Positions 20,811 through 38,520 of a stretch of 64,000 nt of DNA are shown here, piece after piece (within the stretch, counting starts at the first letter, position 1; every line of letters begins with the position of its first letter). Origin of the DNA: a phage; assembly GCA_036253495.1 (NCBI GenBank), contig GCA_036253495.1_4125.1; one strand, written 5' to 3'. The position numbers were made by a program, and so were the translations under genes. The notes below the pieces were generated by a model, which saw nothing but the letters and a program-made list of their open reading frames with translations, was not told where the DNA came from and made no database searches.

Positions 20811-21050
20811 ATGGCTACTACTAAAACTTTCAACGGTCACAAAAACAAAACTCATTGGAATGTAAGCCTTTGGATTAATAACGATGAGTCATTGTATCGT
20901 CTGGCGAAAGAATTTATCGACGCTAATACTAATCGTAATGATGCGGCCCGTCATATGATGCTATTTTTAGAACAAATTGGACAAGATAAAACTCCAGACG
21001 GTTTCAAGTATAGCACTACGGCGATCCGTGCTGCAATGGTTGGAATGTAA
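20811..21050 (+). CDS. hypothetical early protein
   Basis: 79 aa from MATTKTF; promoter + 5' hairpin + SD AGAGGA; track extension rejected. Confidence 0.65.
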   Translation: MATTKTFNGHKNKTHWNVSLWINNDESLYRLAKEFIDANTNRNDAARHMMLFLEQIGQDKTPDGFKYSTTAIRAAMVGM

Positions 21051-21071
21051 GAGAATAGATTTAAAGTACTA

Positions 21072-21096
21072 TTGCACGGTGATAGTACTTTATAAT
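21072..21096 (+). promoter_or_regulatory. possible promoter (weak spacing)
   Basis: TTGCAC ... TATAAT with short spacer. Confidence 0.3.
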
Positions 21097-21132
21097 AGAT
21101 TTCTTTTATACAACAACGATAGGGGTAACAGC

Positions 21133-21399
21133 ATGAATATTATATACTTTGCAACGCGTGAACAAGCTCGGCAAGCGGCAAAGGTTGACGGTGCAACGTT
21201 TAAAGATATGGGCGTACAATCTGAACGTGGTAAACGTTGGGCCGTAGTAAAGCAAAGTACAGCCCGATCAATTCAGTACTGGCTATCGGCTTTAAAGAGT
21301 CCTGATAGTGTATCGCGTCGAGTGGTAGAAATAAAGCACGACCGCAAGGGCAACCGTGTTACTGTGTACAGTACTAAAAAGATTGCAGTACTTGAATAA
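21133..21399 (+). CDS. hypothetical early protein (paralog of 33805-34200)
   Basis: 88 aa; shares FYATREQAR..GA.FKDMG..RWAV and HDRKGNRVTVYS with 33805-34200. Confidence 0.65.
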   Translation: MNIIYFATREQARQAAKVDGATFKDMGVQSERGKRWAVVKQSTARSIQYWLSALKSPDSVSRRVVEIKHDRKGNRVTVYSTKKIAVLE

Positions 21400-21405
21400 A
21401 AGTAC

Positions 21406-21433
21406 TTGCAAAGTAATTAGATTAACGTATAAT
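21406..21433 (+). promoter_or_regulatory. early promoter + 5' stem-loop
   Basis: TTGCAA-16-TATAAT; hairpin GTGGGGAA/TTCCCCAC. Confidence 0.65.
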
Positions 21434-21486
21434 ACTTTCTATCAGGTGGGGAATAGTTCCCCACTACAAATAAGAGGATTTTTAAA

Positions 21487-21717
21487 ATGGCTATTATGTA
21501 TATGACCGAAGTTAAAACCGTAAAAGATACTACCACTAATAAAACTACTTACTTACAGCGGGTATGCGGTGTATGGCAACGTATTAGTAAAGCAAAGTAC
21601 TTTAAATTAACATCATATGCTAATCGTTCGGATTCATTCAGTACTGAAATAAAAGGTAATAAATTACACCAATACGGCACTTATTATTATTATAGCCTGG
21701 ACGCGATTGCAGTCTAA
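21487..21717 (+). CDS. hypothetical early protein
   Basis: 76 aa; 5' region nearly identical to that of 20811-21050. Confidence 0.65.
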   Translation: MAIMYMTEVKTVKDTTTNKTTYLQRVCGVWQRISKAKYFKLTSYANRSDSFSTEIKGNKLHQYGTYYYYSLDAIAV

Positions 21718-21747
21718 GCAGTTTACAAATCTTTACAATTGCCGGTA

Positions 21748-21776
21748 TTGACTTATTTTGTCAGTACTGGCATAAT
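21748..21776 (+). promoter_or_regulatory. sigma70-like promoter in non-coding region
   Basis: TTGACT-17-CATAAT. Confidence 0.5.
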
Positions 21777-21968
21777 GTATCTATTGAAACGAACAATTTG
21801 GCCCACGGGGTGCGGGAGTGTATCTATAGAAAAAGTAGTTTAGTACAGTTACAATTGTGCACCCTATGGGTTAGCTGTTGTCATGGGGTATATTATACCA
21901 GTACTTGATAATGCTGTCAATACTTTTTTTTTACTATTCAGTACTGAAAACTATTTTTTAAAAAGTAC

Positions 21969-21996
21969 TTGCATACTATGTTTAAAGGCGTATAAT
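21969..21996 (+). promoter_or_regulatory. early promoter (upstream of structured leader)
   Basis: AAAAAGTACTTGCAT ... TATAAT GTTTTACATCAG. Confidence 0.6.
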
Positions 21997-22002
21997 GTTT
22001 TA

Positions 22003-22085
22003 CATCAGGACGGGGAACGAAATAAGTAACTCCCCGTTAAGTAGCCCAGGAGTAAGGCACACGAAAAACTCCCCTGATAAAATAG
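22003..22085 (+). other. conserved structured 5' leader RNA between tandem promoters (copy 1)
   Basis: ACGGGGAAcgaaataagtaaCTCCCCGT hairpin then CCAGGAG...CTCCCCTG; copy at 32613-32694 shows covariation. Confidence 0.5.
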
Positions 22086-22114
22086 TTTGACAAATGTTTT
22101 TAAAAGCGTATAAT
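22086..22114 (+). promoter_or_regulatory. second (proximal) promoter
   Basis: TTGACA-17-TATAAT, 30 nt before ATG 22147. Confidence 0.55.
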
Positions 22115-22146
22115 ACTTACATCAACTACTGAATGAGAGTTACAAA

Positions 22147-22821
22147 ATGAAAACTATCACTACTACTACTTTCGTTATGGATTTTTCTGAATTGAATGAG
22201 GGTGGCAAAGCGAAAACTATCACTACTACTACTTATGTTATGGCTTTTTCTGAATTGACCGCAGAACAACAAACGTCAGCTATCGAACTGGTTCGGGATC
22301 GTGAGCGTTCATGCGGGGATGATTTCTTTTCTGAGTCAGTGATCGAATACTATAAAGAAACATTATTGCCGGAATATGGCATTAATGACGCAGATTTACG
22401 ATTCAGTGGTTTTTGGTCGCAGGGTGACGGTGCATCAATCAGTACTGATCACGTTGACGGTGTGAAGTTTTTACGCAAGATTAAAGCATTAACTAAGTAT
22501 CGTTCTATCCGTCACCTGCTGAATGAAGATGATTTGGCAATGAGTGTAAAGCGTTCTCACTCCCACTACTCGCATGAAAACACTGTAAGCGGGTACATTG
22601 AATCGGCTTACACTGATTTAACCGCAAAACAAGAAACGTTAGTTAATGAGCTTGAGGAACTACTCACTGAAACTATTCGTGAATTATCTCGCAAGTTGTA
22701 CCGTGATTTAGAGAATGCATATGAGGATCAATTCACTACTGAGAACATTGTAGCACTGATTGAGGGTAACGAATATCAATTCAATGTTATTGATGGCGTA
22801 GTAGAATCAATCGAATATTAA
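22147..22821 (+). CDS. hypothetical protein with N-terminal in-frame tandem duplication
   Basis: 224 aa; KTITTTT(F/Y)VM(D/A)FSEL repeated twice; tandem promoters and structured leader upstream. Confidence 0.65.
   Translation: MKTITTTTFVMDFSELNEGGKAKTITTTTYVMAFSELTAEQQTSAIELVRDRERSCGDDFFSESVIEYYKETLLPEYGINDADLRFSGFWSQGDGASISTDHVDGVKFLRKIKALTKYRSIRHLLNEDDLAMSVKRSHSHYSHENTVSGYIESAYTDLTAKQETLVNELEELLTETIRELSRKLYRDLENAYEDQFTTENIVALIEGNEYQFNVIDGVVESIEY
22150..22262 (+). repeat. in-frame tandem duplication (~66-bp period) at 5' end of CDS 22147-22821
   Basis: AAAACTATCACTACTACTACTT..GTTATGG.TTTTTCTGAATTGA present twice. Confidence 0.8.
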
Positions 22822-22877
22822 TTCAGTACTGAATCAATGGCGGGAGTGGTTCCCGCCTATAACCAGGAGTAAGCATC

Positions 22878-23111
22878 ATGATCGAACAAATTCAAACGAC
22901 TACTAGCCGGAGCGGAACGAAAGTACATTCCATCGCTGATACTGATAAAGGTGTACCCTATTGTGCTGTACACGTAAACACTGACGGTGACTATTGGTTA
23001 ACTGTATACGGGCGTTACTCGTTTGCTTTTAGTGCACATAGTAAGATCCTGGAAGTAGTGAAGCCAACGGGTAAAAATATTACCGCTGAAATGTTTTATA
23101 AAAAGCACTAA
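22878..23111 (+). CDS. hypothetical early protein (paralog of 24247-24483)
   Basis: 77 aa; GVPYCAVHVNTDG.YW.TVYG..SF and PTGKNITAEMFYKK shared with 24247-24483. Confidence 0.65.
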   Translation: MIEQIQTTTSRSGTKVHSIADTDKGVPYCAVHVNTDGDYWLTVYGRYSFAFSAHSKILEVVKPTGKNITAEMFYKKH

Positions 23112-23118
23112 AAAGTAC

Positions 23119-23146
23119 TTGCAAAGTAATTAGATTAACGTATAAT
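23119..23146 (+). promoter_or_regulatory. early promoter + 5' stem-loop
   Basis: TTGCAA-16-TATAAT; hairpin GCGGGAA/TTCCCGC. Confidence 0.65.
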
Positions 23147-23196
23147 ACTTTATATCGAGAGCGGGAATAGTTCCCGCCTATACTGAGGATTATCTA

Positions 23197-23495: not shown

Positions 23496-23699
23496 ATGAG
23501 TGATTTAATTGAACGTATCAAAGAGCTTGAAGAAAAAGAATTGCAGCTAATCGGCTTACAGAATAAAATCTATCATGATTTGGGGAGTTTTATCAATGCC
23601 TGGGATAGTGGCGATCCTGATGCGTTACCTGCTAACCGCCAGGCGATGATCAATGATGTGCGTCGTGTCTTTGAGTATGTTTTTAAGCAATTAAATTAA
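23496..23699 (+). CDS. hypothetical early protein
   Basis: 67 aa from MSDLIERIKELEE; SD AAGGA; track start 23460 rejected. Confidence 0.55.
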   Translation: MSDLIERIKELEEKELQLIGLQNKIYHDLGSFINAWDSGDPDALPANRQAMINDVRRVFEYVFKQLN

Positions 23700-23706
23700 A
23701 AAGTAC

Positions 23707-23734
23707 TTGCAATTAGTTTTCAGTACTGTATAAT
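23707..23734 (+). promoter_or_regulatory. early promoter + 5' stem-loop
   Basis: TTGCAA ... cAGTACTG TATAAT; hairpin GGGGAGAA/TTCTCCC. Confidence 0.65.
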
Positions 23735-23784
23735 AGTTTACATCAAGGGGAGAAATGGTTCTCCCTGGTAATGAGGAAAATACA

Positions 23785-24006
23785 ATGGCTAACATTACTA
23801 CCCTTTCCCAACTTGAAGCACTGGTTAAATCTATGCGGGAACATGCCGACAATATCGGCGTAAAAGATCCAGCCGTTTGCTTCTGCGACGATGTAAATGA
23901 TGATACACTGGTAATAGCAGAAGTCCAGGACGTTTCTAACTATTCATCGCGTTACACTGGCGGTGTAGCAAATAAAGGTGACTTCTGTTTATACCTTACT
24001 AAGTAA
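23785..24006 (+). CDS. hypothetical early protein
   Basis: 73 aa from MANITTLSQ; promoter + hairpin upstream; terminator downstream. Confidence 0.65.
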   Translation: MANITTLSQLEALVKSMREHADNIGVKDPAVCFCDDVNDDTLVIAEVQDVSNYSSRYTGGVANKGDFCLYLTK

Positions 24007-24040: not shown

Positions 24041-24127
24041 AGTACTGAATCATTTAATAGACGGATCTATGCACCCGGTGGGTTAGAGACTGTATCGTCT
24101 TGATGTAGTAATTATGCCAGTACTGGA
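24041..24127. repeat. ~80-bp repeated intergenic element (copy 3)
   Basis: AGTACTGAA..CTATGCACCCGGTGGGTTAGAG..GTAATTATGCCAGTACTGG. Confidence 0.6.
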
Positions 24128-24172
24128 TGCAGTTGTCAAGAACTATTTTTCAAATACTTTTTATTAAAATAC

Positions 24173-24200
24173 TTGCTAATAGTTTTTAAACGCGTATAAT
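24173..24200 (+). promoter_or_regulatory. early promoter + 5' stem-loop
   Basis: TTGCTA-16-TATAAT; hairpin GGGGAgcgGTTCCCC. Confidence 0.6.
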
Positions 24201-24246
24201 GTTTTGCATAGGGGAGCGGTTCCCCTGGTAACTAAGGAATAAGAAA

Positions 24247-24483
24247 ATGCTTGAACAAATCAAAACAACGTCTGCGAATGTAACGGGAACGGTATCACAC
24301 TTTATTGGTGATGAATCGCGGGGCGTACCCTATTGTGCTGTACATGTAAACACTGATGGCAACTACTGGTTTACGGTTTACGGATCTTATTCATTTGGTC
24401 GACCTGGACATCAAAAAATCCTGGATAAAGTACAGCCAACGGGTAAAAATATCACTGCTGAAATGTTTTATAAAAAATCATAA
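24247..24483 (+). CDS. hypothetical early protein (paralog of 22878-23111)
   Basis: 78 aa; promoter + hairpin upstream. Confidence 0.65.
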   Translation: MLEQIKTTSANVTGTVSHFIGDESRGVPYCAVHVNTDGNYWFTVYGSYSFGRPGHQKILDKVQPTGKNITAEMFYKKS

Positions 24484-24488
24484 AGTAC

Positions 24489-24516
24489 TTGCAATTAGTT
24501 TTTAGTACTGTATAAT
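24489..24516 (+). promoter_or_regulatory. early promoter + 5' stem-loop
   Basis: TTGCAA-16-TATAAT; hairpin GGGGGAAC/GTTCCCC. Confidence 0.65.
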
Positions 24517-24566
24517 ATTTTACATAGCAAGGGGGAACGGTTCCCCTGGTAACTAAGGATAATCAA

Positions 24567-24866
24567 ATGAAAATTGCAATCATCGCCCTGGCTTTATCTG
24601 TTTCCTCTTTCGCTGTTAATGCGTCATTAGATGTACCTGGTGATAAATTCATTCAGTGCACAGTAGCAATGACAGATGAAAGTACTGGCGAGATTGTTTT
24701 AAAGGATCTGGAATTACAGCCAGAAGCATTTAAAAACGGGCCGTTCCATGAAGAAGACGAAAAAGGTAGCACAACAATTTATTATGATGCAATGAAAAAA
24801 CGTGGTTCTGTCACTGTTATGGATACTGAGAAAGTAACGCATACAGGCGTTATTAACTGCCTATAA
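24567..24866 (+). CDS. small secreted protein (signal peptide)
   Basis: MKIAIIALALSVSSFAVNA then mature part; terminator downstream. Confidence 0.65.
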   Translation: MKIAIIALALSVSSFAVNASLDVPGDKFIQCTVAMTDESTGEIVLKDLELQPEAFKNGPFHEEDEKGSTTIYYDAMKKRGSVTVMDTEKVTHTGVINCL

Positions 24867-24885: not shown

Positions 24886-24915
24886 TAGCCCACTATAAGC
24901 AGTGGGCTTTTTTGT
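24886..24915 (+). terminator. rho-independent terminator
   Basis: AGCCCACT-ataagc-AGTGGGCT + TTTTTG. Confidence 0.75.
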
Positions 24916-24961
24916 AGTATCGTAGTACTGGAATACTTTGAAAATAGTTTTAAAAAAGTAG

Positions 24962-24990
24962 TTGACATTACCGCAAAAAGGCGTAGAATG
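24962..24990 (+). promoter_or_regulatory. promoter with long leader (H-NS-like gene)
   Basis: TTGACA-17-TAGAAT; ~120-nt leader before ATG 25113. Confidence 0.55.
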
Positions 24991-25112
24991 TATTACATCA
25001 AGACGGGGAACACTAAGTAGACCGCCAGTAAGTCGAACGAAAAACTGGACACGTCGAGAAAACTTTGATACACTAACTAACGTAAACTAAACTTTAATTG
25101 AGGAATTACATA

Positions 25113-25615: not shown

Positions 25616-25646
25616 TAGCCCACCTTAAACAGTGGGCTTTTTTTGT
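25616..25646 (+). terminator. rho-independent terminator
   Basis: AGCCCAC-cttaaac-AGTGGGCT + TTTTTTT. Confidence 0.75.
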
Positions 25647-25663
25647 GTCTATAGTATCCCAGT

Positions 25664-25733: not shown

Positions 25734-25798
25734 CGTTAAGGTCGTTAGAATGCGATTGAGAGCGTTTAAAGTATTTTGCAAAAAGTAATAAAAAGTAC

Positions 25799-25826
25799 TT
25801 GCACGATAAAGAGATTAGCGTATAAT
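25799..25826 (+). promoter_or_regulatory. early promoter
   Basis: AAAAAGTACTTGCAC-16-TATAAT. Confidence 0.6.
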
Positions 25827-25871
25827 TAATTACATCAAGGCGAGACACCTTAACTAACTGAGGATATAAAG

Positions 25872-26032: not shown

Positions 26033-26061
26033 TTGACAATAGTTTTAAGTACTGCGATAAT
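26033..26061 (+). promoter_or_regulatory. early promoter
   Basis: TTGACA-17-GATAAT. Confidence 0.55.
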
Positions 26062-26094
26062 ACATACATCAACTACTGAATAGGAATCAAAACA

Positions 26095-26322
26095 ATGGCT
26101 ATCGTAATCACTCGCGTAACTGGTACTACTGGCAATTCTTCTACTGTTGCTGTAATTACTAATAAGAAAGGTGCGGAATTGCATTTTGCAATGGATACCT
26201 GGGCAGTGAATGAGTTCGGTCAGTGGGCTAGTGTAGAATACATTGAATCCTATCAAGTGCCATCGATTAGCTTAACTGATTTAGGTGTAGAACGTATCCT
26301 TTGCCTGGATGAATTAAATTAA
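26095..26322 (+). CDS. hypothetical early protein
   Basis: 75 aa; promoter TTGACA/GATAAT upstream. Confidence 0.6.
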   Translation: MAIVITRVTGTTGNSSTVAVITNKKGAELHFAMDTWAVNEFGQWASVEYIESYQVPSISLTDLGVERILCLDELN

Positions 26323-26330
26323 AAAAGTAC

Positions 26331-26358
26331 TTGCAAAGTAAATCAAATAAAGTATAAT
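26331..26358 (+). promoter_or_regulatory. early promoter + 5' stem-loop
   Basis: TTGCAA-16-TATAAT; hairpin GGGGAGAA/TTCTCCCC. Confidence 0.65.
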
Positions 26359-26408
26359 ACATTACATCAAGGGGAGAAATGGTTCTCCCCACTAAGAGGA
26401 AACGAAAA

Positions 26409-26552
26409 ATGAAAACTTGTCAATGTGGTAAAAAATCTATTACTGGTTTAAAGCGGGGCGTTGCTCTTTGTCAGTATCACTATAATGCTCAAGTATGGGG
26501 TAAAGAGTGGGCCGACCGGGTTGAAGCATCAAAGAAAGCAAAAAGTAAGTAA
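26409..26552 (+). CDS. small Cys-rich protein (47 aa, not in ORF track)
   Basis: MKTCQCGKK...CQYHY; promoter + hairpin + SD AGAGGA upstream. Confidence 0.5.
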   Translation: MKTCQCGKKSITGLKRGVALCQYHYNAQVWGKEWADRVEASKKAKSK

Positions 26553-26571
26553 AAATATTATCACAGTACTA

Positions 26572-26600
26572 TTGACATAGATTGATAGTACTGGCATAAT
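26572..26600 (+). promoter_or_regulatory. early promoter (duplicated cassette, copy 1)
   Basis: TTGACA-17-CATAAT; same 90-bp cassette at 26857-26947 and 30738-30827. Confidence 0.6.
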
Positions 26601-26643
26601 AGATTTTATCAAGACAACACATATTAATTTAAGGAATACTAAA

Positions 26644-26856
26644 ATGGCTATCATTATTAAAAACAAAGTTAACAAGACTATCGTTAAACTGGCAGAAGTG
26701 AAAGAAGGTTATAAAGTATCTTGGGAGGGTTTTTATAGGATGTTCACAGATATAGACGATGCAATCAAGTACTACACTGATACGGTTGCTGACTTTGTTC
26801 GTTCTGATGTAGTAATGGCAGTTGCACAACATAAAGCATCGAAAGAAAGTAAGTAA
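26644..26856 (+). CDS. hypothetical early protein (cassette paralog, cf. 30828-31007)
   Basis: 70 aa; near-identical promoter/leader to 26857-26947 and 30738-30827. Confidence 0.65.
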   Translation: MAIIIKNKVNKTIVKLAEVKEGYKVSWEGFYRMFTDIDDAIKYYTDTVADFVRSDVVMAVAQHKASKESK

Positions 26857-26875
26857 AATTATTATCACAGTACTA

Positions 26876-26904
26876 TTGACATAGTTTGATAGTACTGGCA
26901 TAAT
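26876..26904 (+). promoter_or_regulatory. early promoter (duplicated cassette, copy 2)
   Basis: TTGACA-17-CATAAT. Confidence 0.6.
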
Positions 26905-26947
26905 AGATTTTATCAAGACAACACATATTAATTTAAGGAATACTAAA

Positions 26948-27271
26948 ATGGCTAAAACTATCATTAACACCGTATCCCTGGCTGCAATCCGTGCAATCAA
27001 TGTTGACGGTAAACGTTGGACTGATTCATATGGCAATACTTATCATTCTTGTCATGTAAGCGTTGAACTGGATAACGGTGTGAATGATCTGGCGGTTGAA
27101 TCATTTACTTATGGCTATGAAGATGCATATCAACAAACGGCGTTATCTCTCTTAAAGGAATCAGTAGATGGGCTTGATACTGTTGAAACCTCCCTTAATC
27201 GTTTGTGCAATGATTTGTCTATCCCGTTGCATTGTACTGTACAGAATGTTAAACGCAAAAAAGATCTTTAA
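26948..27271 (+). CDS. hypothetical early protein (paralog of 33386-33709)
   Basis: 107 aa; RWTDS.GNTYHSC, FTYGY, VKRKKD shared with 33386-33709. Confidence 0.7.
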   Translation: MAKTIINTVSLAAIRAINVDGKRWTDSYGNTYHSCHVSVELDNGVNDLAVESFTYGYEDAYQQTALSLLKESVDGLDTVETSLNRLCNDLSIPLHCTVQNVKRKKDL

Positions 27272-27947: not shown

Positions 27948-28157
27948 ATGCTTACTGTACAGGATAAGATCGACATCTTAAAGGTTAATATGTATGTGAT
28001 TGATGCAGATCCTGAAAAAGTATTTGCATACGATGATTCTAATCGTAGTCCTTTCTATTGTAGTCATGTAGTTGGATACGTGCCGTTGGCGTATGTTATC
28101 GAAAGAGTGGTTGATGCAGCATACAATCATTTTTTAGAAAATAATACTTGCAATTAG
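27948..28157 (+). CDS. hypothetical early protein
   Basis: 69 aa; closely follows upstream ORF. Confidence 0.55.
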   Translation: MLTVQDKIDILKVNMYVIDADPEKVFAYDDSNRSPFYCSHVVGYVPLAYVIERVVDAAYNHFLENNTCN

Positions 28158-31288: not shown

Positions 31289-31362
31289 TATATACCTATC
31301 CGATAGTACTACAAAATAGATTAGCTCGTTAGAATGCGTTTGAGAGCGTTTAAATAAGTACT

Positions 31363-31390
31363 AAAAAGTATTGACAGTACTGATAGATAG
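31363..31390 (+). promoter_or_regulatory. early promoter + 5' stem-loop
   Basis: TTGACA-16-TATAAT; hairpin GGGGAA-acatc-TTCCCC. Confidence 0.65.
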
Positions 31391-31445
31391 TGTATAATGT
31401 TTTACATGAAGGGGAAACATCTTCCCCTACTAAGAGGAAAACAAA

Positions 31446-31634
31446 ATGGAACAATTATCAAGTATTTTAGTACAAGATGAATACGGCAATCCAGGAAGTG
31501 CTATCATTGTTCGGGGTAATAAGGCAACGTTTGTTATTGCTGGTGGACCTGTACAGCGTAGCATTAAAAACAATGCCGTTACTATTAATAATGTACGCTA
31601 TCGTTTAGATAAAGAATTAATTCATAAACTTTAA
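31446..31634 (+). CDS. hypothetical early protein
   Basis: 62 aa; promoter + hairpin upstream. Confidence 0.65.
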   Translation: MEQLSSILVQDEYGNPGSAIIVRGNKATFVIAGGPVQRSIKNNAVTINNVRYRLDKELIHKL

Positions 31635-31642
31635 AAAAGTAC

Positions 31643-31670
31643 TGGACAATAGATTATAGTACTGTATAAT
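31643..31670 (+). promoter_or_regulatory. early promoter + 5' stem-loop
   Basis: TGGACA-16-TATAAT; hairpin GGGGAGAA/TTCTCCCC. Confidence 0.6.
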
Positions 31671-31720
31671 AAGTTACATGAAGGGGAGAAATGATTCTCC
31701 CCAGTACTGAGGAAAGAAAA

Positions 31721-31933
31721 ATGCAAGGTCAACTAATCGTTCGTAAATGGTCTGATACTAACGCTAAACCGTGGGATGTACAATACATCGCCCCCAATGG
31801 TGAATCCAGATATCAACCAGGTGTAACGCATAGTACTGAGCAATATGCCGCCGCACACCGTGAACGCCTGTTACAATCCATGCAGCAAGGCTTCGGTGAA
31901 AAATTCATCCAAGATCATTGGCTGAAAGATTAA
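31721..31933 (+). CDS. hypothetical early protein
   Basis: 70 aa from MQGQLIVRKW; promoter + hairpin; track extension rejected. Confidence 0.65.
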   Translation: MQGQLIVRKWSDTNAKPWDVQYIAPNGESRYQPGVTHSTEQYAAAHRERLLQSMQQGFGEKFIQDHWLKD

Positions 31934-31941
31934 AAAAGTAT

Positions 31942-31969
31942 TTGACAAAGTATCACAGTACTGTATAAT
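31942..31969 (+). promoter_or_regulatory. early promoter + 5' stem-loop
   Basis: TTGACA-16-TATAAT; hairpin GGGGAGAA/TTTCTCCCC. Confidence 0.65.
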
Positions 31970-32020
31970 TAATTACATCAAGGGGAGAAGTTTTCTCCCC
32001 ACCATATAAGGGTAACAGTT

Positions 32021-32431: not shown

Positions 32432-32446
32432 AATAAATTGAAAAAA

Positions 32447-32479
32447 GGGATTGACTCCGGTCAGTCCCTTTGCTATTAT
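32447..32479 (+). promoter_or_regulatory. composite terminator-hairpin/promoter element (copy 2)
   Basis: AAAAAAGGGATTGACTCCGGTCAGTCCCTTTGCTATTAT. Confidence 0.55.
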
Positions 32480-32578
32480 ATACGCATAGAAACAAATTAG
32501 CCCACCGGGTGCATAAATGTATCTATTGTTTGCTGGTGGAGGTATTATCTAGTACTGAAAACTATTTTTAAAAAGTAC

Positions 32579-32606
32579 TTGCATTGTACTTAGAATCAAG
32601 TATAAT
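32579..32606 (+). promoter_or_regulatory. early promoter (upstream of structured leader)
   Basis: TTGCAT-16-TATAAT GTTTTACATCAG. Confidence 0.6.
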
Positions 32607-32612
32607 GTTTTA

Positions 32613-32694
32613 CATCAGGACGGGGAATGAAACAAGTAACCCCGTTAAGTAGTCCAGGAGTAAGACATAAGAAAACCTCCCCTGATAAAATAGT
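32613..32694 (+). other. conserved structured 5' leader RNA between tandem promoters (copy 2)
   Basis: ACGGGGAAtgaaacaagtaaCCCCGT then CCAGGAG...CCTCCCCTG. Confidence 0.5.
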
Positions 32695-32722
32695 TTGACA
32701 ATAGAAAGTAAACGAGTATAAT
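32695..32722 (+). promoter_or_regulatory. second (proximal) promoter
   Basis: TTGACA-16-TATAAT before ATG 32755. Confidence 0.55.
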
Positions 32723-32754
32723 ACTTACATCAACCACTGATAAGGAAACATAAA

Positions 32755-33030
32755 ATGCGGATTCTACTGACAGCTAACGAAATCGAGCAAGTACTGACTA
32801 CTAACCTGGAACAATGGAAACGTGATGCAGATATCCAGGCGGTACAATGGCTTAACGATAAGTTAACGCCAGATGACTTAAGCAAGATTGTTGACCCTCA
32901 ATTCTATGAAGATATTCACGACACGGCTTTAAGCGTCGAGGATGTACTTGATAAGCACTACATTGATATTGATTTGCAGGTTTACGGTCGTAAAAACTTT
33001 ATCACTATTCACGACATTTACAATACTTAA
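32755..33030 (+). CDS. hypothetical early protein
   Basis: 91 aa; tandem promoters and structured leader upstream. Confidence 0.65.
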   Translation: MRILLTANEIEQVLTTNLEQWKRDADIQAVQWLNDKLTPDDLSKIVDPQFYEDIHDTALSVEDVLDKHYIDIDLQVYGRKNFITIHDIYNT

Positions 33031-33033
33031 GTA

Positions 33034-33061
33034 TTGACAAAGTATCTTAGTACTGTATAAT
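33034..33061 (+). promoter_or_regulatory. early promoter + 5' stem-loop
   Basis: TTGACA-16-TATAAT; hairpin GAGGGGAA/TTCCCCTC. Confidence 0.65.
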
Positions 33062-33115
33062 AGTTTACATCAAGAGGGGAATGGTTCCCCTCCTAACAAA
33101 GAGAGAGAAATAAAA

Positions 33116-33298
33116 ATGGCTAAGTGCACTATCTGTAAGAAAGAAATCGTATTAGTTCCAAGTGCCCGTGAACGTGCCGCTCGGTTCGGTGGCAAAGCGT
33201 CAGACTATACAAAAATGTTTACTGCCCATGCAGATTGCCAGGTAGCAAAACGTTCACAAGAAAGCGTAGAATTAATGCGTAAACTTTCCAAAAAATAA
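33116..33298 (+). CDS. small zinc-ribbon-like protein
   Basis: 60 aa; CTIC...HADC motif; promoter + hairpin upstream. Confidence 0.6.
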   Translation: MAKCTICKKEIVLVPSARERAARFGGKASDYTKMFTAHADCQVAKRSQESVELMRKLSKK

Positions 33299-33301
33299 GT
33301 A

Positions 33302-33329
33302 TTGACAAAGTATCTTAGTACTGTATAAT
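33302..33329 (+). promoter_or_regulatory. early promoter + 5' stem-loop (duplicate of 33034)
   Basis: TTGACA-16-TATAAT; hairpin GAGGGGAA/TTCCCCTC. Confidence 0.65.
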
Positions 33330-33385
33330 AGTTTACATCAAGTGAGGGGAATGGTTCCCCTCCTAACTAAAAGAGAGAAATAAAA

Positions 33386-33731: not shown

Positions 33732-33760
33732 TTGACATTGCCCAGATAGTACTTTATAAT
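33732..33760 (+). promoter_or_regulatory. early promoter
   Basis: TTGACA-17-TATAAT. Confidence 0.6.
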
Positions 33761-33804
33761 AGACTCTAGCTTGTAGTACTAACTTAACTAATAGGATGTA
33801 TACC

Positions 33805-34200
33805 ATGATTACTAAATTCTACGCTACCCGTGAAGCTGCCCGTATTGTTGCACGCGAGGAAGGAGCAGCATTTAAAGACATGGGCACGACCGCACCGAAA
33901 GGCCAACGCTGGGCCGTACAGTTCAAAGAAATCTCTGATATTGTGAATTCACCTGAACCAGTACTAACAGCAGCAGAACAGAAGAAAGCTGATGAACTGT
34001 CAGCAGTACTTAACGCTCAAGATGAATTTATCGCGGGTTCTGATATCAAAGTACAGGTAAATGCTAATGCATGGACTCACGCGGATCACCTGGCTAACCT
34101 GAAGCGTCCAAGTGAACTGGTTCGCAACCAGAAAGAGATCCGACACGACCGTAAGGGTAATCGTGTAACAGTATACAGTAAACGCCGCCAGGTTATCTAA
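33805..34200 (+). CDS. hypothetical early protein (paralog of 21133-21399)
   Basis: 131 aa from MITKFYATREAAR; SD AGGA; terminator downstream. Confidence 0.65.
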   Translation: MITKFYATREAARIVAREEGAAFKDMGTTAPKGQRWAVQFKEISDIVNSPEPVLTAAEQKKADELSAVLNAQDEFIAGSDIKVQVNANAWTHADHLANLKRPSELVRNQKEIRHDRKGNRVTVYSKRRQVI

Positions 34201-34221: not shown

Positions 34222-34250
34222 CGGCGGGATCAGTTCCCGCCTTTTTTATA
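34222..34250 (+). terminator. rho-independent terminator
   Basis: GGCGGGA-tcagt-TCCCGCC + TTTTTT. Confidence 0.75.
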
Positions 34251-34262
34251 GGATAAACTAAA

Positions 34263-34517
34263 ATGATTAAGGTACAACTATCTAAAGATAATATCTTGCG
34301 GGTACACTATAAAGCCCCTCAGAGAATCATCACAAAGGCCGTACAGCTTGCTAATGAGTTTATTAATGGTAATCTATTGCCCAGGAAGTTAAGCAACGGC
34401 AAACTGCGTGTAATCGATGTAGACACTAACAACAGGATAGTAATCGAGAATACCGGAAAGATAAACCTCTATGAACACCAACAATATAATAAGAAAATAA
34501 AACTAATATCACGTTGA
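34263..34517 (+). CDS. hypothetical early protein
   Basis: 84 aa; SD AGGA. Confidence 0.6.
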   Translation: MIKVQLSKDNILRVHYKAPQRIITKAVQLANEFINGNLLPRKLSNGKLRVIDVDTNNRIVIENTGKINLYEHQQYNKKIKLISR

Positions 34518-34542
34518 CAGTACTCAATTGTTTTAGTACTAT
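34514..34542 (+). promoter_or_regulatory. early promoter
   Basis: TTGACA-17-TACTAT. Confidence 0.55.
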
Positions 34543-34570
34543 GTATCTATACCAACACGGGAGAAACAAA

Positions 34571-34789: not shown

Positions 34790-34818
34790 TTGACAGTACT
34801 CAAATGTTTTAGTACTAT
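34790..34818 (+). promoter_or_regulatory. early promoter (duplicate of 34514)
   Basis: TTGACA-17-TACTAT. Confidence 0.55.
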
Positions 34819-34854
34819 ATGTACATACCAACACGGAATAACTGGAGAAACAAA

Positions 34855-35082
34855 ATGATTAATATCTTAGAACGCATCAAAGAAACTACTACGCTGGTGG
34901 ATCTACTCAATGTACTGACTTTTAAAGTAACTCGGTTTAGTACTCCTGAATTTATCAACCTCATTGATAGTAAAGGTGAATACCGCATCACTATTGAAAA
35001 TGGTCGTGCTAATGTATTCAGTACTAAATCAGGTAAAACCGCAATTCATTCTGTAATTGCAAATAAAACTGTTGCAATCTAA
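34855..35082 (+). CDS. hypothetical early protein
   Basis: 75 aa from MINILERIK; duplicated promoter as upstream gene. Confidence 0.6.
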   Translation: MINILERIKETTTLVDLLNVLTFKVTRFSTPEFINLIDSKGEYRITIENGRANVFSTKSGKTAIHSVIANKTVAI

Positions 35083-35100
35083 TTAGTACTAACATATAAT
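35072..35100 (+). promoter_or_regulatory. promoter + 5' stem-loop (kinase-like gene)
   Basis: TTGCAA-17-TATAAT; hairpin GCAGGGA/TCCCTGC. Confidence 0.55.
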
Positions 35101-35151
35101 AGTCACATCAAGGCAGGGAATACCTCCCTGCTATCTTAAAGAGTAAATGCA

Positions 35152-35736
35152 ATGCGTAATTATACTAAATTCATCCGGGCACTGGCAGAAATGGAAACTA
35201 ACAAAGAGATCCTTACAGCTTGTCGGTTGGCTGGTCTGGAGATCATCGGGGCCGGATCATCCCGTATCGTATTCGCTTTAAATGATCGGTTAGTGATTAA
35301 GGTCGCTAATTGTGACGCTGGCGTAGAACAAAATGAAACAGAATGTAAGGTATGGAATTTTTTAGATTATGACCGCCCTCACCTTAAACAGTACTTTGCT
35401 AAGGTGCATATGCATTTAAGCGATCCTGATAATATGTTTATTGTTATGGATCGTTTGAGTACTGCAAGCAAAGGCAGTGTAAAGCACGTTAACGCTTGCA
35501 ATGAATTAAAGTACAATGTCAAACGTAACACTATTGAACGCCAACACCATTTCGCTGATGCACTACAACACGTTGATGATACCTTATCAACACTAACGAT
35601 AAGAGATATCAGAAAGCAGAACATAGGCCAAGATCGCAATGGCCTGATTAAAGTACTTGATTACGGTTTAACCCGCAATATCTGGAATCAGTACTATAAA
35701 CAACGCGACGTAAAAGCCGTAACTATAACACGATAA
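35152..35736 (+). CDS. protein kinase-like protein (candidate small Ser/Thr or atypical kinase)
   Basis: 194 aa; Gly-loop IIGAGSSRIVF, Lys motif LVIKV, catalytic-loop-like IRDIRKQNIG, DFG-like VLDYG. Confidence 0.5.
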   Translation: MRNYTKFIRALAEMETNKEILTACRLAGLEIIGAGSSRIVFALNDRLVIKVANCDAGVEQNETECKVWNFLDYDRPHLKQYFAKVHMHLSDPDNMFIVMDRLSTASKGSVKHVNACNELKYNVKRNTIERQHHFADALQHVDDTLSTLTIRDIRKQNIGQDRNGLIKVLDYGLTRNIWNQYYKQRDVKAVTITR

Positions 35737-35750
35737 AAAAGATTAAAAAA

Positions 35751-35783
35751 GGGATTGACTCCAGTCAGTCCCTTTGCTATTAT
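35751..35783 (+). promoter_or_regulatory. composite terminator-hairpin/promoter element (copy 3)
   Basis: AAAAAAGGGATTGACTCCAGTCAGTCCCTTTGCTATTAT. Confidence 0.55.
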
Positions 35784-35878
35784 ATAGTCATTGAGAGATA
35801 ACTCACTGACCCATAGGGTGCATAAGTGTATCTATAATATAAGTATTGTCAGTACTGAAAACTATTTTAAAAAAGTAC

Positions 35879-35906
35879 TTGCATTGTACTTAGAATCAAG
35901 TATAAT
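35879..35906 (+). promoter_or_regulatory. early promoter + 5' stem-loop
   Basis: TTGCAT-16-TATAAT; hairpin GGGGGAAAC/GTTCTCCC. Confidence 0.65.
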
Positions 35907-35958
35907 GTTTTATATCGAGAGGGGGAAACGGTTCTCCCTGGCAATAAGGAATAAAATC

Positions 35959-36180
35959 ATGACTACAATGACTTGCATTTACGCTTCCAATCTTCTGAAT
36001 GATGCGGCCTTTAATGTTGATTCAGAATATCAATGTTATCGGGATGAAAATAAAAAAGTTTTTGTAGTTGATAATAATGGTTTCCATATTGAATTGCAAT
36101 CCGGCTTCACTGGCGTTGATGGTAAATCAGTATGGGGCGTACAGGATGATAAAGGTACATATCATTTTAAACGTAATTAA
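35959..36180 (+). CDS. hypothetical early protein
   Basis: 73 aa from MTTMTCIY; promoter + hairpin; track extension from 35791 rejected. Confidence 0.6.
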   Translation: MTTMTCIYASNLLNDAAFNVDSEYQCYRDENKKVFVVDNNGFHIELQSGFTGVDGKSVWGVQDDKGTYHFKRN

Positions 36181-36183
36181 GTA

Positions 36184-36211
36184 TTGACAAAGTATCTTAG
36201 TACTGTATAAT
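36184..36211 (+). promoter_or_regulatory. early promoter + 5' stem-loop
   Basis: TTGACA-16-TATAAT; hairpin GGGGAGAA/TTCTCCCC. Confidence 0.65.
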
Positions 36212-36263
36212 AGTTTACATCAAGGGGAGAATAGTTCTCCCCGATACTAAAAGGAATAAAATC

Positions 36264-36671
36264 ATGACTACTACTAATCAAGCTCGGTCCATCGCCAACG
36301 ATAAAAATCATGCTGCAATGGTCGCTGGTTACATTGAAGCTATGCAATTCAGTACTGTACACAATGAGAACGGCGAATACCTGGAAGATTATGAATTATC
36401 AGAGCAAGCCCATCAAGCGGCAGTGATTGCATGTTCACGTTTCCTTGCTGTACATGGTGAAGATATGGAAACAGTACAAAAACACCATAATCCTGATTAT
36501 ACTTATAATCATGCAGGTCATGATCTCTTTCTTACTCGCGAAGGTCACGGTACTGGCTTTTGGGATCGTGATATCGGTCACTATGACGATGTATTCACTA
36601 AGTACTGCGAAGAAATCAACGTTTGCGATCCCTATGTAGGCGATGATAATCTAATCTATATGGGCGAATAA
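36264..36671 (+). CDS. hypothetical protein with His/Asp-rich motif
   Basis: 135 aa; HAGHDLFLTREGHGTGFWDRDIGHYDD suggests metal-binding/hydrolase-like site (speculative). Confidence 0.65.
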   Translation: MTTTNQARSIANDKNHAAMVAGYIEAMQFSTVHNENGEYLEDYELSEQAHQAAVIACSRFLAVHGEDMETVQKHHNPDYTYNHAGHDLFLTREGHGTGFWDRDIGHYDDVFTKYCEEINVCDPYVGDDNLIYMGE

Positions 36672-36677
36672 AAGTAC

Positions 36678-36705
36678 TTGACAAAGTATATCAGTACTGT
36701 ATAAT
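36678..36705 (+). promoter_or_regulatory. early promoter + 5' stem-loop
   Basis: TTGACA-16-TATAAT; hairpin GGGGAGAA/TTCTCCCC. Confidence 0.65.
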
Positions 36706-36758
36706 AGTTTACATCAAGGGGAGAATAGTTCTCCCCACCAATAAAAGGAAACAACATT

Positions 36759-37031
36759 ATGTCAAGCTACTCCGCTACTATGATCATTAAAGATATGAAC
36801 GGTAATCCTACTTCTGCTGGTGGATCATTTGGAAACATTAACTTAGATGGTCGGTTATCAATGGAATCAGCCATCAATGCAGCGAAAGAAGTTTTTAAGA
36901 ATGAATGTACTGTAAGCAAGCTAGATTATATGGGCTTCGCTATCGAGAAAACTAAACGTTTTGTGGACTACAAAAATCCACTAATGATTGATACTAACCT
37001 GAAAGCTAACGAAGTGGAATACTTATTATGA
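36759..37031 (+). CDS. hypothetical early protein
   Basis: 90 aa; promoter + hairpin upstream. Confidence 0.65.
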   Translation: MSSYSATMIIKDMNGNPTSAGGSFGNINLDGRLSMESAINAAKEVFKNECTVSKLDYMGFAIEKTKRFVDYKNPLMIDTNLKANEVEYLL

Positions 37032-37219
37032 CAGTTGAAGAAGTTAAAAAAGTACTGGCAGTACTACGCTATCATAATCATTGCAAGGTGAAGAATGATC
37101 CTGATTATGTTGATTCATCCCTGGAGGAAGACACCTTAAACGCGATAAGCCATATGCAAACATTAGCAAAGCGTATGACCGAAAAGAATAGGCCGGACTA
37201 TATCGGAAATAAAATTTAA
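37028..37219 (+). CDS. hypothetical early protein
   Basis: 63 aa; ATGA overlap with upstream ORF. Confidence 0.55.
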   Translation: MTVEEVKKVLAVLRYHNHCKVKNDPDYVDSSLEEDTLNAISHMQTLAKRMTEKNRPDYIGNKI

Positions 37220-37226
37220 AAAGTAC

Positions 37227-37254
37227 TTGCATTGTAGTTAGATTAAAGTATAAT
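37227..37254 (+). promoter_or_regulatory. early promoter + 5' stem-loop
   Basis: TTGCAT-16-TATAAT; hairpin GGGGGAAA/TTTCCCCT. Confidence 0.65.
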
Positions 37255-37306
37255 GTTTTATATCGAGAGGGGGAAATGGTTTCCCCTCAAGTCCAGGAGA
37301 TACACC

Positions 37307-37570
37307 ATGAACACTATCGAAATCACTATTAATGCTCACGTATACGACAACGTAGTACTGCAAACTACTATGACCGCTAACGATACCAGTACTTTGCGGA
37401 ATACTGTTATAAGTGCTGTATGTGCCGCTATCGGTGATGTATCCCTGGAAAATGCAGAACACATCAACAACGGTTTCACTATGTGCAAACGTGATAACGC
37501 AAAACATATCATCGTAGAAGGTTACGGCGGTGTAGAATATAACCTTTATATGAAAAAAGTACTTGCATAG
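37307..37570 (+). CDS. hypothetical early protein
   Basis: 87 aa from MNTIEITINAH; 3' end overlaps next promoter. Confidence 0.6.
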   Translation: MNTIEITINAHVYDNVVLQTTMTANDTSTLRNTVISAVCAAIGDVSLENAEHINNGFTMCKRDNAKHIIVEGYGGVEYNLYMKKVLA

Positions 37571-37590
37571 TAACTAAAACAAAGTATAAT
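37563..37590 (+). promoter_or_regulatory. early promoter + 5' stem-loop
   Basis: TTGCAT-16-TATAAT; hairpin GGGGGAG-atatc-CTCCCCC. Confidence 0.65.
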
Positions 37591-37638
37591 GTTTTGCATA
37601 GGGGGAGATATCCTCCCCCACTAATAAGGAGTACTACG

Positions 37639-37863
37639 ATGGCTAATCATGATGAACTGATTCGGGAAGTAGCTAACCTGGCGGCAGAAAAGAAATCATT
37701 TGATTCTATCTATAACACCGCTCACCGTGATTCAGTACTGGCATGTAATCAGGATCAAAAAGATGAACTGATCGCAACCTATCATGAAGCATGGAAGTAT
37801 TACCGTCAATGGGAGAAAGAAGAAAAAGCATCAACCATAAGAGGATTAAATAATCTAGTATAA
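37639..37863 (+). CDS. hypothetical early protein
   Basis: 74 aa from MANHDELIREV; SD AAGGAG. Confidence 0.6.
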   Translation: MANHDELIREVANLAAEKKSFDSIYNTAHRDSVLACNQDQKDELIATYHEAWKYYRQWEKEEKASTIRGLNNLV

Positions 37864-37869
37864 CAATAA

Positions 37870-37900
37870 AAGGGGATGATAATATCCCCTTAATAATTTC
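37870..37900 (+). terminator. possible terminator (weak U-tract)
   Basis: GGGGAT-gataat-ATCCCC + TTAATAATTT. Confidence 0.4.
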
Positions 37901-37915
37901 TATAATAGGTTAACA

Positions 37916-38182
37916 ATGAAAAAGAAAACAACATATCGCTATAATAAAAATTATCAATCCGTTGTATTAGATCACTCTATGCTCCCGCTCGTTGTCCCTG
38001 CCGTTGGTGTAGTCTATCAATCCATATACTGGTCAAGGAAACAACAAAAGTACTTAAAAGGCCCACTAGCACGTTATGAGGGTAACGGTGTATGGTCCGA
38101 TCCGTTACATCCAATCACTACGCGTTATATTGAATATTTTCCTTATTGTGACTACATTGAAATACATCCTAAATTTAATTGA
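37916..38182 (+). CDS. hypothetical early protein (paralog of 38263-38520)
   Basis: 88 aa; shares NG.W.DP..PI and YIE motifs with next gene. Confidence 0.6.
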   Translation: MKKKTTYRYNKNYQSVVLDHSMLPLVVPAVGVVYQSIYWSRKQQKYLKGPLARYEGNGVWSDPLHPITTRYIEYFPYCDYIEIHPKFN

Positions 38183-38187
38183 TAGTA

Positions 38188-38215
38188 TTGACAGTACTAA
38201 CTGATAGTGTATAAT
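38188..38215 (+). promoter_or_regulatory. early promoter + 5' stem-loop
   Basis: TTGACA-16-TATAAT; hairpin GGGGGAATACTCCCCC. Confidence 0.65.
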
Positions 38216-38262
38216 GTTTTGCATAGGGGGAATACTCCCCCAATATTAAAAGGGGAATCATC

Positions 38263-38520
38263 ATGGAACAATTCACACAATATCGGGTAAATCCTCAAGC
38301 TATGGCCTACGTAGAAGACCATAAAACGTTACCAGTACTGCAACCAGTTAAAGGCCGTATCTATCGTGGCCTTGCATGGAATACGGCCCAGGATGGATAT
38401 AAAACCGTTGCCGTGGGGATGTATTGCGGGAATGGTGAATGGTTTGATCCTAACAATCCGATTGCACTTGACAGTACTGAAAAAATGAAATGGGCCGACT
38501 ATATCGAGGATATCTCATAA
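38263..38520 (+). CDS. hypothetical early protein (paralog of 37916-38182)
   Basis: 85 aa; promoter + hairpin GGGGGAATACTCCCCC upstream. Confidence 0.65.
   Translation: MEQFTQYRVNPQAMAYVEDHKTLPVLQPVKGRIYRGLAWNTAQDGYKTVAVGMYCGNGEWFDPNNPIALDSTEKMKWADYIEDIS

Follow-up and report, generated by a model that had tools for sequence, protein, structure and literature searches.

A phage contig of 64,000 nucleotides (nt; contig GCA_036253495.1_4125.1 of GenBank assembly GCA_036253495.1, hereafter 'the window') carries 53 plus-strand genes between positions 20,354 and 39,879, each encoding 45–224 amino acids (aa). These small genes are spaced and most of them have their own regulatory unit, unlike the densely packed, overlapping genes past 40.3 kb. 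About 27–29 of the gene upstream regions combine a promoter, a hairpin and a Shine–Dalgarno (SD) sequence, about 11 have a strong promoter without a hairpin, and about seven are operonic. An initial annotation of positions 20,811–38,520 had described an early region built by duplication of promoter–gene units that act as mobile modules. In the analysis reported here, the repeated and recombining unit is the promoter/leader cassette itself, and open reading frames (ORFs) and cassettes are uncoupled.

The best DNA matches of this 17.7-kb region are Escherichia jumbo phages of the genus Asteriusvirus (121Q, PBECO4, G17, A4, CRJP21 and fEgEco12), at about 90% identity and with a maximum coverage by any one record of 71%. 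In phage vB_Ec-M-J the homologous genes 001–053 lie within an annotated direct terminal repeat (DTR) of 21,525 bp, and the 20,993-bp DTR of fEgEco12 was identified with PhageTerm and confirmed by restriction digestion (PMC13070987). Position 1 of the fEgEco12 DTR corresponds to about 18,606 in the window and its end at 20,993 to about 40,300. End-to-end alignment with the fEgEco12 and vB_Ec-M-J DTRs places the region wholly inside this DTR equivalent (about 18,606–40,300; about 21.7 kb), which is identified, by homology to these two phages only, as the probable terminal repeat of the source phage. The window holds one collapsed copy of the DTR, and the DNA before it is the other genome end.

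The cassette, as predicted from its many copies, has an A-rich/AGTACT upstream element, a sigma-70 promoter at or near consensus, a TTTACAT start region, in about 27–29 copies a GC-rich hairpin of 7–9 bp, and then the SD sequence and the ATG. The upstream element AAAAAGTAC occurs in most cassettes. Perfect TTGACA-N16/17-TATAAT promoters number 16 in the window against 0.13 expected, with 15 of the 16 inside the DTR equivalent, and there are about 45 plus-strand promoter sites with at least 10 of the 12 consensus positions. An nhmmer profile built from 27 seeds of the hairpin-type cassette gives 34 matches in the window, all on the plus strand and all within 18,983–39,478; the other 42 kb has none. 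In vB_Ec-M-J the profile gives 35 matches and in fEgEco12 33, the last of them at 20,629 and 20,162, respectively, inside the DTRs of these phages. With 34 profile matches, the family is larger than the initial annotation had listed. Its members share stretches of 60–125 nt at 75–98% identity at many sites and form subfamilies, defined by their spacers, that are scattered over the region.

The four sets of near-verbatim cassette copies that had been listed are all real, with identities of 80–98%. The segments 26553–26643 and 26857–26947 are 98% identical over the upstream 90 nt, with a third copy at 30738–30827 (89%). Those at 33031–33115 and 33299–33385 are 96% identical, those at 34500–34570 and 34790–34854 (both TTGACA-17-TACTAT promoters without a hairpin) have 80% column identity, and the 5' regions of genes 20811 and 21487 are 83% identical. 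Identity between cassettes is not confined to the promoter elements: in a 124-nt repeat it takes in the 17-nt spacer and the upstream flank and reaches into both neighbouring genes, over the final codons of the one before and the initial codons of the one after. The three hairpin-less copies of this repeat lie at 26542–26665, running from the final codons of the preceding gene into the opening codons of the gene called E1 below, at 26846–26969 (94% identical to the first over 124 nt) and at 30727–30850 (75% over 124 nt).

The cassettes coincide with places where gene content changes between relatives. When gene presence was scored in six relatives, 38 of the 53 genes were conserved and 15 variable. 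Breakpoints taken from colinear BLAST chains against five relatives fall into 45 clusters. Of these, 30 are intergenic or at a gene edge, where chance predicts 31.6% (binomial p 1.4e-6); with positions up to 25 nt from a gene end counted as well, the number rises to 42. The only recurrent intragenic breakpoint, one of the three exceptions, lies in gene 22147 and is caused by a 63-bp tandem duplication. This duplication, at 22130–22273 (two copies, 79–87% matches), comprises the leader and the 5' end of gene 22147–22821 and repeats a KTITTTT.VM.FSEL segment.

In each of the three adjacent cassette pairs with the highest similarity, the two copies enclose a module that some relatives lack exactly. 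Gene E1 (26644–26856), between the 98% identical cassettes, is missing in G17 and fEgEco12, where a single cassette lies between the same neighbours. Module 33116–33298 is missing in 121Q; its flanking cassettes (33023–33107 on the left and 33291–33376, which drives gene C2, on the right) are 96% identical and each has a promoter, hairpin and SD. Module 36264–36671 is missing in CRJP21 and 121Q and lies between two further cassettes of this kind (36172–36260 and 36668–36756) that are 88% identical. The single cassette of 121Q joins the 5' part of the left copy to the 3' part of the right copy, and that of CRJP21 is a finer mosaic. Exchange is also seen at other cassettes. In CRJP21, E1 stands directly behind the hairpin cassette (26317–26399; promoter, hairpin and SD) that drives gene 26409 in the window. 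None of the six relatives has gene 29562–30029, an insertion at the SD of a promoter, hairpin and SD cassette (29466–29559) that drives gene 30094 in all of them; a promoter (30033–30093; TAGACA-17-TATAAT, with a stem-loop across the -10) came in with this module. Module 22824–23108, containing gene B1, is absent from A4 and vB_Ec-M-J. The mobility of promoter–gene units proposed in the initial annotation therefore stands for single genes with a cassette, which are exchangeable on the evidence of the breakpoints, the exact insertions and deletions and, as described below, a different gene order in another phage subfamily; the proposal that the region was built by duplication of such units is not supported as it was put.

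An alternative is that the cassettes resemble each other through convergence and purifying selection, and that modules move by illegitimate recombination with the gene-breaking events purged. The -35, the -10 and the SD are at consensus and would be conserved in any case, and selection by itself predicts intergenic breakpoints. This is nevertheless improbable, since the identity reaches parts without expected constraint (spacer, upstream flank and neighbouring codons), the spacer-defined subfamilies are scattered along the region, relatives lacking a module have a single cassette that switches from left-type to right-type polymorphisms, and a polymorphic module lies between the members of each of the three adjacent pairs that are most alike.

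Four of the five paralog pairs that had been proposed are significant (BLASTP E 1e-18 to 1e-39), the two members belonging to the same PHROG family in each case. These are A1 and A2 (21133–21399, 88 aa, and 33805–34200, 131 aa; phrog_8127; 33% identity, E 1.5e-18), B1 and B2 (22878–23111, 77 aa, and 24247–24483, 78 aa; phrog_9227; 67.5%, E 1.6e-39), C1 and C2 (26948–27271 and 33386–33709, both 107 aa; phrog_6246; 36%, E 6e-27), and D1 and D2 (37916–38182, 88 aa, and 38263–38520, 85 aa; phrog_34861; 37%, E 3e-19), all on the plus strand. The fifth pair, E1 (26644–26856, 70 aa, phrog_35559) and E2 (30828–31007, 59 aa, phrog_9374), is not established: the proteins give no BLASTP match, and the two plus-strand genes share only the cassette and the first codons. 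Their relationship as paralogs is unproven, with a Smith–Waterman shuffle result of 1/3000 that becomes 17/3000 without the first five residues, where the MAII start is carried by the cassette.

The paralogs are old, with synonymous sites near or at saturation: nonsynonymous (dN) and synonymous (dS) divergence are 0.55 and 3.0 for A1/A2 and 0.27 and 0.98 for B1/B2, and dS is not computable for the C and D pairs. The A and C pairs occur as pairs in all six relatives. In the other two pairs B2 and D2 are the conserved copies, and B1 and D1 are extra copies with no ortholog in the six relatives or in 50,697 phage records. The best match of B1 in any phage record is 73% at the aa level; all 35 tblastn matches of D1 are below 60% identity (37.9% for the best of those listed) and fall on D2 orthologs. 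Both extra copies lie directly behind another gene without a promoter of their own, B1 having a promoter-less leader of hairpin and SD (22822–22877) and D1 no strong consensus promoter or leader hairpin upstream. Both look like divergent homologs gained from elsewhere rather than local duplicates, and may be recent acquisitions from unsampled phages.

These data bear on the possibility that the region grew mainly by duplication of whole promoter–gene units followed by divergence of the copies. Such growth would be consistent with the four significant pairs, with the adjacency of D1 and D2, with the annotation in related phages of three genes of the length of the C family (324 nt) and with the presence of tandem paralog arrays elsewhere in the window. 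However, only eight of the 53 genes are involved, and their synonymous sites are saturated or nearly so, in contrast to cassettes of up to 98% identity. The cassettes of paralogs are also no more similar than random cassette pairs (18th to 84th percentile; 7% for D and 52–68% for A, B and C), and the near-identical cassettes (88–98%) precede unrelated ORFs. Because the paralogs are old, their cassettes are not especially alike and B1 and D1 have no orthologs (besides lacking promoters), unit duplication does not explain the architecture, and there is only a small chance that it was the main route of growth.

The hairpin of the cassette seems to be a feature of the transcript. In 27–29 cassettes a GC-rich stem of 6–9 bp (dG -11 to -16 kcal/mol) lies just after the -10, at about +5 to +25 of the predicted transcript. 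Its arms vary compensatorily: in a loop-anchored comparison of 20 distinct stems, a stem's own arms form 7.75 contiguous pairs against 4.70 for swapped arms, a difference reached in 0 of 10,000 permutations. (A MAFFT/RNAalifold alignment was out of structural register and its counts are noisy.) The compensatory changes therefore indicate selection for pairing and a structure at the RNA level. They also fit poorly with the idea that the inverted repeat is a DNA operator, at which a dimeric phage repressor would shut off early transcription, since such changes are unusual in an operator recognised by a protein; moreover, about 11 cassettes lack the repeat. Early shut-off is to be expected in large lytic phages, the position from +5 to +25 would suit a roadblock operator, and the centre of the hairpin, GGAA-TRG-TTCC, is fairly conserved, yet an operator function appears very improbable.

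A better case can be made for the leader hairpins being mainly transcription terminators or attenuators that isolate the modules, rather than stabilisers or insulators of the 5' end. In the T4-type phages RB49/phi1, the stem-loop of the promoter-early stem-loop (PeSL) motif cut downstream lacZ expression as strongly as rrnB T1 (PMC2839356). In the G17 annotation, several hairpins immediately before start codons are labelled as terminators on the basis of ARNOLD, and at 34223–34251 in the window a hairpin of the cassette type (GGCGGGATCAGTTCCCGCC) is followed by TTTTTT, making a terminator-like site on the plus strand. On the other hand, no T run follows the promoter-proximal leader hairpins, and none of them is among the 23 terminator-like sites of the scan. 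Since each leader hairpin follows the promoter it belongs to, it would also attenuate the transcript of that promoter, and canonical terminators are separately present at about 10 other places in the region. Termination as the main role is a possibility to be kept in mind, less likely than a function in the 5' leader. The separate sites include four plus-strand composites in which the terminator-like hairpin contains the -35 (TTGACT) of a promoter with a TATTAT -10, at 29162–29197, 32444–32479 (AAAGGGATTGACTCCGGTCAGTCCCTTT followed by TATTAT), 35748–35783 and 38826–38861; a stem-loop over the -10 is found in one cassette.

Matches beyond the genus point to exchange over a wider range. As a database query the DTR equivalent matched 230 phage records from several genera, against 36–37 records, from Escherichia and Salmonella phages, for flanks of equal length. 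About 190 non-Asteriusvirus DNA matches come mainly from gene 20811–21050, from 37028–37219 and from a few others; B2 was considered as their source and rejected. Gene 20811–21050 is present at 84–92% DNA identity in many phages of about 136–152 kb from other groups, including genomes of Phapecoctavirus size and JES2013, which stood next to rV5-related records in the reverse search. The Vequintavirinae phage A5-4 (Escherichia, OP744025, 145 kb) has eight genes of seven DTR gene families at 72–85% nt identity. In a 2.6-kb cluster (L008 2501–5145) they are arranged as homologs of 20811, 23197, 26095, 26409, 30525, 26644, 20811 again and 30094, an order that differs from that in the window, behind cassettes of the same type. 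The A5-4 cassettes score up to 66.6 bits with the profile and are at most 88.9% identical to cassettes of the window, this value being found with the promoter, hairpin and SD cassette at 28132–28226. In a Phapecoctavirus a gene of the B family is preceded by a TTGACA-17-TATTAT promoter, a GGCGGGAA/TTTCCCGCC hairpin and an SD. A blastn search with a 98-nt cassette gave matches in 66 records, among them the annotated terminal repeats of the Klebsiella phages Muenster and fENko-Kae01 and jumbo phages of Salmonella, Erwinia, Serratia and Yersinia. The same pool of genes and cassettes is shown here to be common to unrelated coliphage lineages.

A more far-reaching proposal, which must be regarded as speculative and rather doubtful, is that the Rak2-like DTR is a platform for exchange across families, on which Asteriusvirus, Vequintavirinae and Stephanstirmvirinae would trade genes for host takeover, with the cassettes as adaptors and possibly with help from the palindrome CAGTACTG. 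The two RNA families described below would then provide cis-acting control, for example as put- or nut-like antitermination signals or processing signals that coordinate transcription through the modules.

The whole is probably best explained as an early gene block in a DTR with cassette-mediated exchange of single genes. In this explanation, a presumably immediate-early block of genes, transcribed by the host RNA polymerase, would fill the long DTR of a jumbo coliphage of the Asteriusvirus type, and most of its roughly 53 very small genes carry their own standard cassette. Homologous recombination between cassettes is shown here to delete, insert or replace single ORFs and to leave a functional chimeric cassette; the cassettes are suited to swap ORFs because stretches of 60–125 nt are so nearly identical at so many sites. 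The hairpin may act as a 5' structure that insulates or stabilises each short mRNA and may dampen read-through from upstream, which would let any ORF work behind any cassette. The paralogs would be a minor by-product, two pairs being old and fixed in the genus and two extra copies being lineage-specific acquisitions. By analogy with the early regions in the terminal repeats of SPO1 and T5, the genes may serve host takeover.

Several points weigh against this explanation. The breakpoints are ends of BLAST blocks, which tend to coincide with the ends of repeated cassettes, the removal of broken genes by selection would on its own push the surviving breakpoints into intergenic DNA, and the comparison comprises only six relatives. 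Early timing, the positions of transcription starts and all roles of the hairpin are predictions from the DNA sequence. With the start placed at the A of ACAT, about 4–5 unpaired nt would precede the hairpin, which is borderline for 5'-end protection in Escherichia coli. Domain matches in the gene products are weak or generic, and the role in host takeover is suggested by analogy. The notion that the DTR is unusually divergent from known phages was rejected: its best megablast coverage by known phages is 71%, and the flanks are covered even less (50–55%). 'Hyperplastic' is true of the gene content of the DTR but not of its sequence divergence.

Exchange at repeated promoter cassettes is already known in principle from T4-like phages, so the present case is a clear new example and not a new mechanism. 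PeSLs have been described in RB49/phi1, T4/PST and KVP40/nt-1 (Arbiol et al. 2010, PMC2839356; Comeau et al. 2014, PMC4122927). They fall into subclasses with the stem-loop over the -35, over the -10 or after the -10, and a chimeric PeSL remains after a deletion (PMC2839356). Like PeSLs, the cassettes are repeats of about 100 bp with an AT-rich upstream part, a strong sigma-70 promoter, a GC-rich stem-loop, an SD and a start codon, and they stand before small ORFans clustered in plastic regions. The insertions and deletions between close relatives are likewise bounded by the motifs, with one chimeric motif left after deletion, and the -35 terminator–hairpin composites (32444 and others) match a described PeSL subclass. 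The differences are that the phages are of another group (Rak2-like jumbo phages), that all copies lie in one 21.7-kb terminal repeat rather than in several hyperplastic regions, that the stem-loop of the main class is inside the 5' leader and without a T run, and that the cassette pool is common to other phage subfamilies. A text search of the literature found no PeSL reports outside T4-like phages, and no description of promoters or cassettes of this kind in papers on Asteriusvirus, fEgEco12, fENko-Kae01 or related jumbo phages.

The setting of the genes recalls the host-takeover module of SPO1, a terminal repeat packed with small early genes whose promoters and ribosome-binding sites are of the highly expressed type (PMC6873191), much as 53 genes with consensus promoters are found in the 21.7-kb DTR equivalent. 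There is no sequence relationship, however, and host shut-off is demonstrated for SPO1 genes, as it is for none here; about 26 genes are in operons there, in contrast to genes mostly with their own promoter here, and the description of SPO1 does not include cassette shuffling. The pre-early region of T5, its first-step-transfer DNA, is also a long direct terminal repeat that contains the first-expressed genes and strong promoters of the host type. It has no homology to the present region and far fewer genes, and two-step DNA transfer is not known for Asteriusvirus. The morons of lambdoid phages (Juhala, Hendrix) are additional genes, inserted one at a time between neighbouring ones, that bring a promoter and sometimes a terminator and vary in presence among relatives. 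They are scattered single insertions without a common cassette, whereas in the present region a repeated cassette gives homology for exchange.

If this explanation is right, it offers a concrete account, at the level of sequence, of turnover in the 'dark matter' early gene sets of jumbo phages: single ORFs would be exchanged at standard regulatory cassettes, and their products would stay expressible. The PeSL principle would then hold outside the T4-like phages as well, in a terminal repeat, and would cover exchange between phage subfamilies. The cassettes would be compact, probably very strong and context-independent expression units, and the polymorphic modules (E1, 33116, 36264, 29562, B1 and D1) could serve as natural knock-outs or knock-ins for the function of early genes. 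The two RNA families and CAGTACTG, if functional, would add new regulatory elements to those of a phage group that is widely isolated.

None of the genes could be given a function. The initial annotation had suggested that partially redundant paralogs may be specialised against different hosts or defences; Pfam searches gave nothing for the ten proteins of the proposed pairs, and PDB sequence searches with the four families gave nothing significant; the structure model of the C family is confident, and its fold matches are weak. Nearly all of the 53 genes that were tested have no significant Pfam match. Gene 34263–34517 encodes a ParE-like toxin domain (PF24732, E 6e-11, above the cut-off) and has the terminator-like site at 34223 just before it. 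The product of 35152–35736 has a Pkinase match with an E of 0.001, below the Pfam cut-off, and is annotated as a Ser/Thr kinase in fEgEco12; that of 23197–23478 matches DUF1033 (E 4.6e-6). As to an action on host functions, the kinase-like and ParE-like matches are hints at most, as are the DksA-like and GNAT genes that relatives carry in the same region.

The remaining cassettes, all on the plus strand, can be grouped by their parts. A promoter, a GC leader hairpin and an SD are present at 20715–20802, and the same three parts at 21392–21478, 23105–23196, 23694–23785, 24159–24248 (driving B2), 24476–24567, 28461–28551, 28690–28783 (the query of the cross-genus search), 30436–30520, 31356–31438, 31627–31719, 35062–35147 (driving the kinase-like gene), 35864–35960, 37211–37308, 37547–37638, 38178–38264 (driving D2), 38512–38607 and 39381–39478. 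The cassette at 31927–32017 has a promoter and hairpin with no ORF of at least 40 aa directly behind it, and promoter and leader cassettes lie at 20256–20351 and 38958–39057. Hairpins are lacking at 26033–26094, and also at 31025–31106, 32695–32754 and 33732–33804 (driving A2), all three of which have a perfect consensus promoter. A perfect consensus promoter also serves gene 22147 (22078–22125). The profile matches only the promoter part at 18983–19036, in the ORF-poor left end of the DTR, at 24946–25013 and at 25786–25844, and it also detects the promoters of the two copies of an RNA candidate of about 80 nt described below (21953–22019 and 32564–32629).

The left 1.6 kb of the DTR equivalent (18,606–20,250) contains no convincing ORF. 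It has minus-strand promoters and short tandem or iteron-like repeats at 18744–18798, 19151–19217 (a 26-nt unit repeated 2.6 times) and 19405–19554, and may be a packaging-end or origin region.

Although duplication is frequent in the window as a whole, it is not so within the DTR. Much larger paralog arrays are found beyond its borders, at 1408–14463 (minus strand) and at 14754–18360, 40359–46942 and 53308–54690 (plus strand). They comprise seven fibre-like genes with common N-termini, arrays of 60–70-aa genes before the DTR, about 20 overlapping genes of about 70 aa right after it, and a triplet of genes of about 150 aa.

The palindrome CAGTACTG occurs 59 times in the window against 0.83 expected from shuffles, an over-representation of about 70-fold, and AGTACT occurs 271 times, with its coding enrichment in all three frames. 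In the DTR it reaches 13 per kb of non-coding and 3.6 per kb of coding DNA; it is densest over 18,500–40,300 and absent from 46–52 kb. Within cassettes it takes two fixed positions, either directly before or overlapping the -35, or ending 1 nt before the -10. It is possibly a site for protein binding, modification or recombination.

Two families of putative RNA elements were also found. Searches of the whole window against Rfam at gathering thresholds were negative, as were those of 18.3–40.6 kb at E up to 1, and a scan for tRNAs found none. The first family, of two-hairpin leaders, has nine promoter-proximal elements in gene-free gaps on both strands, each after a sigma-70 promoter: five on the plus strand (21775–21824, 29197–29246, 32474–32523, 35783–35832 and 38856–38905) and four on the minus strand (19740–19789, 19956–20005, 21848–21897 and 24060–24109), with two convergent pairs (such as 21802+/21870-). 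All four pairs of the 4-bp stem 1 covary (17 double-change cells, 0 of 500 shuffles). Hairpin 2 has an invariant CCC-AYN-GGG with a variable loop, within the motif CCCAYNGGGTGC (nine copies against 0.5 expected). These leaders could be small RNAs or cis-acting leader signals.

The terminator-like sites at 24887–24918 (AGCCCAC...GTGGGCT and a T run), 25617–25648 and 31257–31292, all on the plus strand, have hairpins (24887–24908, 25617–25638 and 31257–31282) with the common arms AGCCCAC...GTGGGCT. The left arm is the start of the AGCCCACCGGGTGC motif in the two-hairpin leaders, which suggests a common origin of these three terminators and the leaders. A further terminator-like hairpin, at 37870–37901 just before D1, is given here for the plus strand and was listed on both strands.

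The second family is a non-coding RNA candidate of about 80 nt with two copies (22003–22082 and 32612–32690), each with a strong promoter before it and a promoter and gene directly after. It is 92–99% identical in all Asteriusvirus loci and 90% in A5-4 (L008:2501–2587), and is more conserved than the neighbouring genes. The predicted structure has a closing stem AUCAGG/CCUGAU and two hairpins, with a minimum free energy of -22.3 kcal/mol (z -3.25). Substitutions are almost all in loops, and one changes a G-C pair of a stem to G-U.

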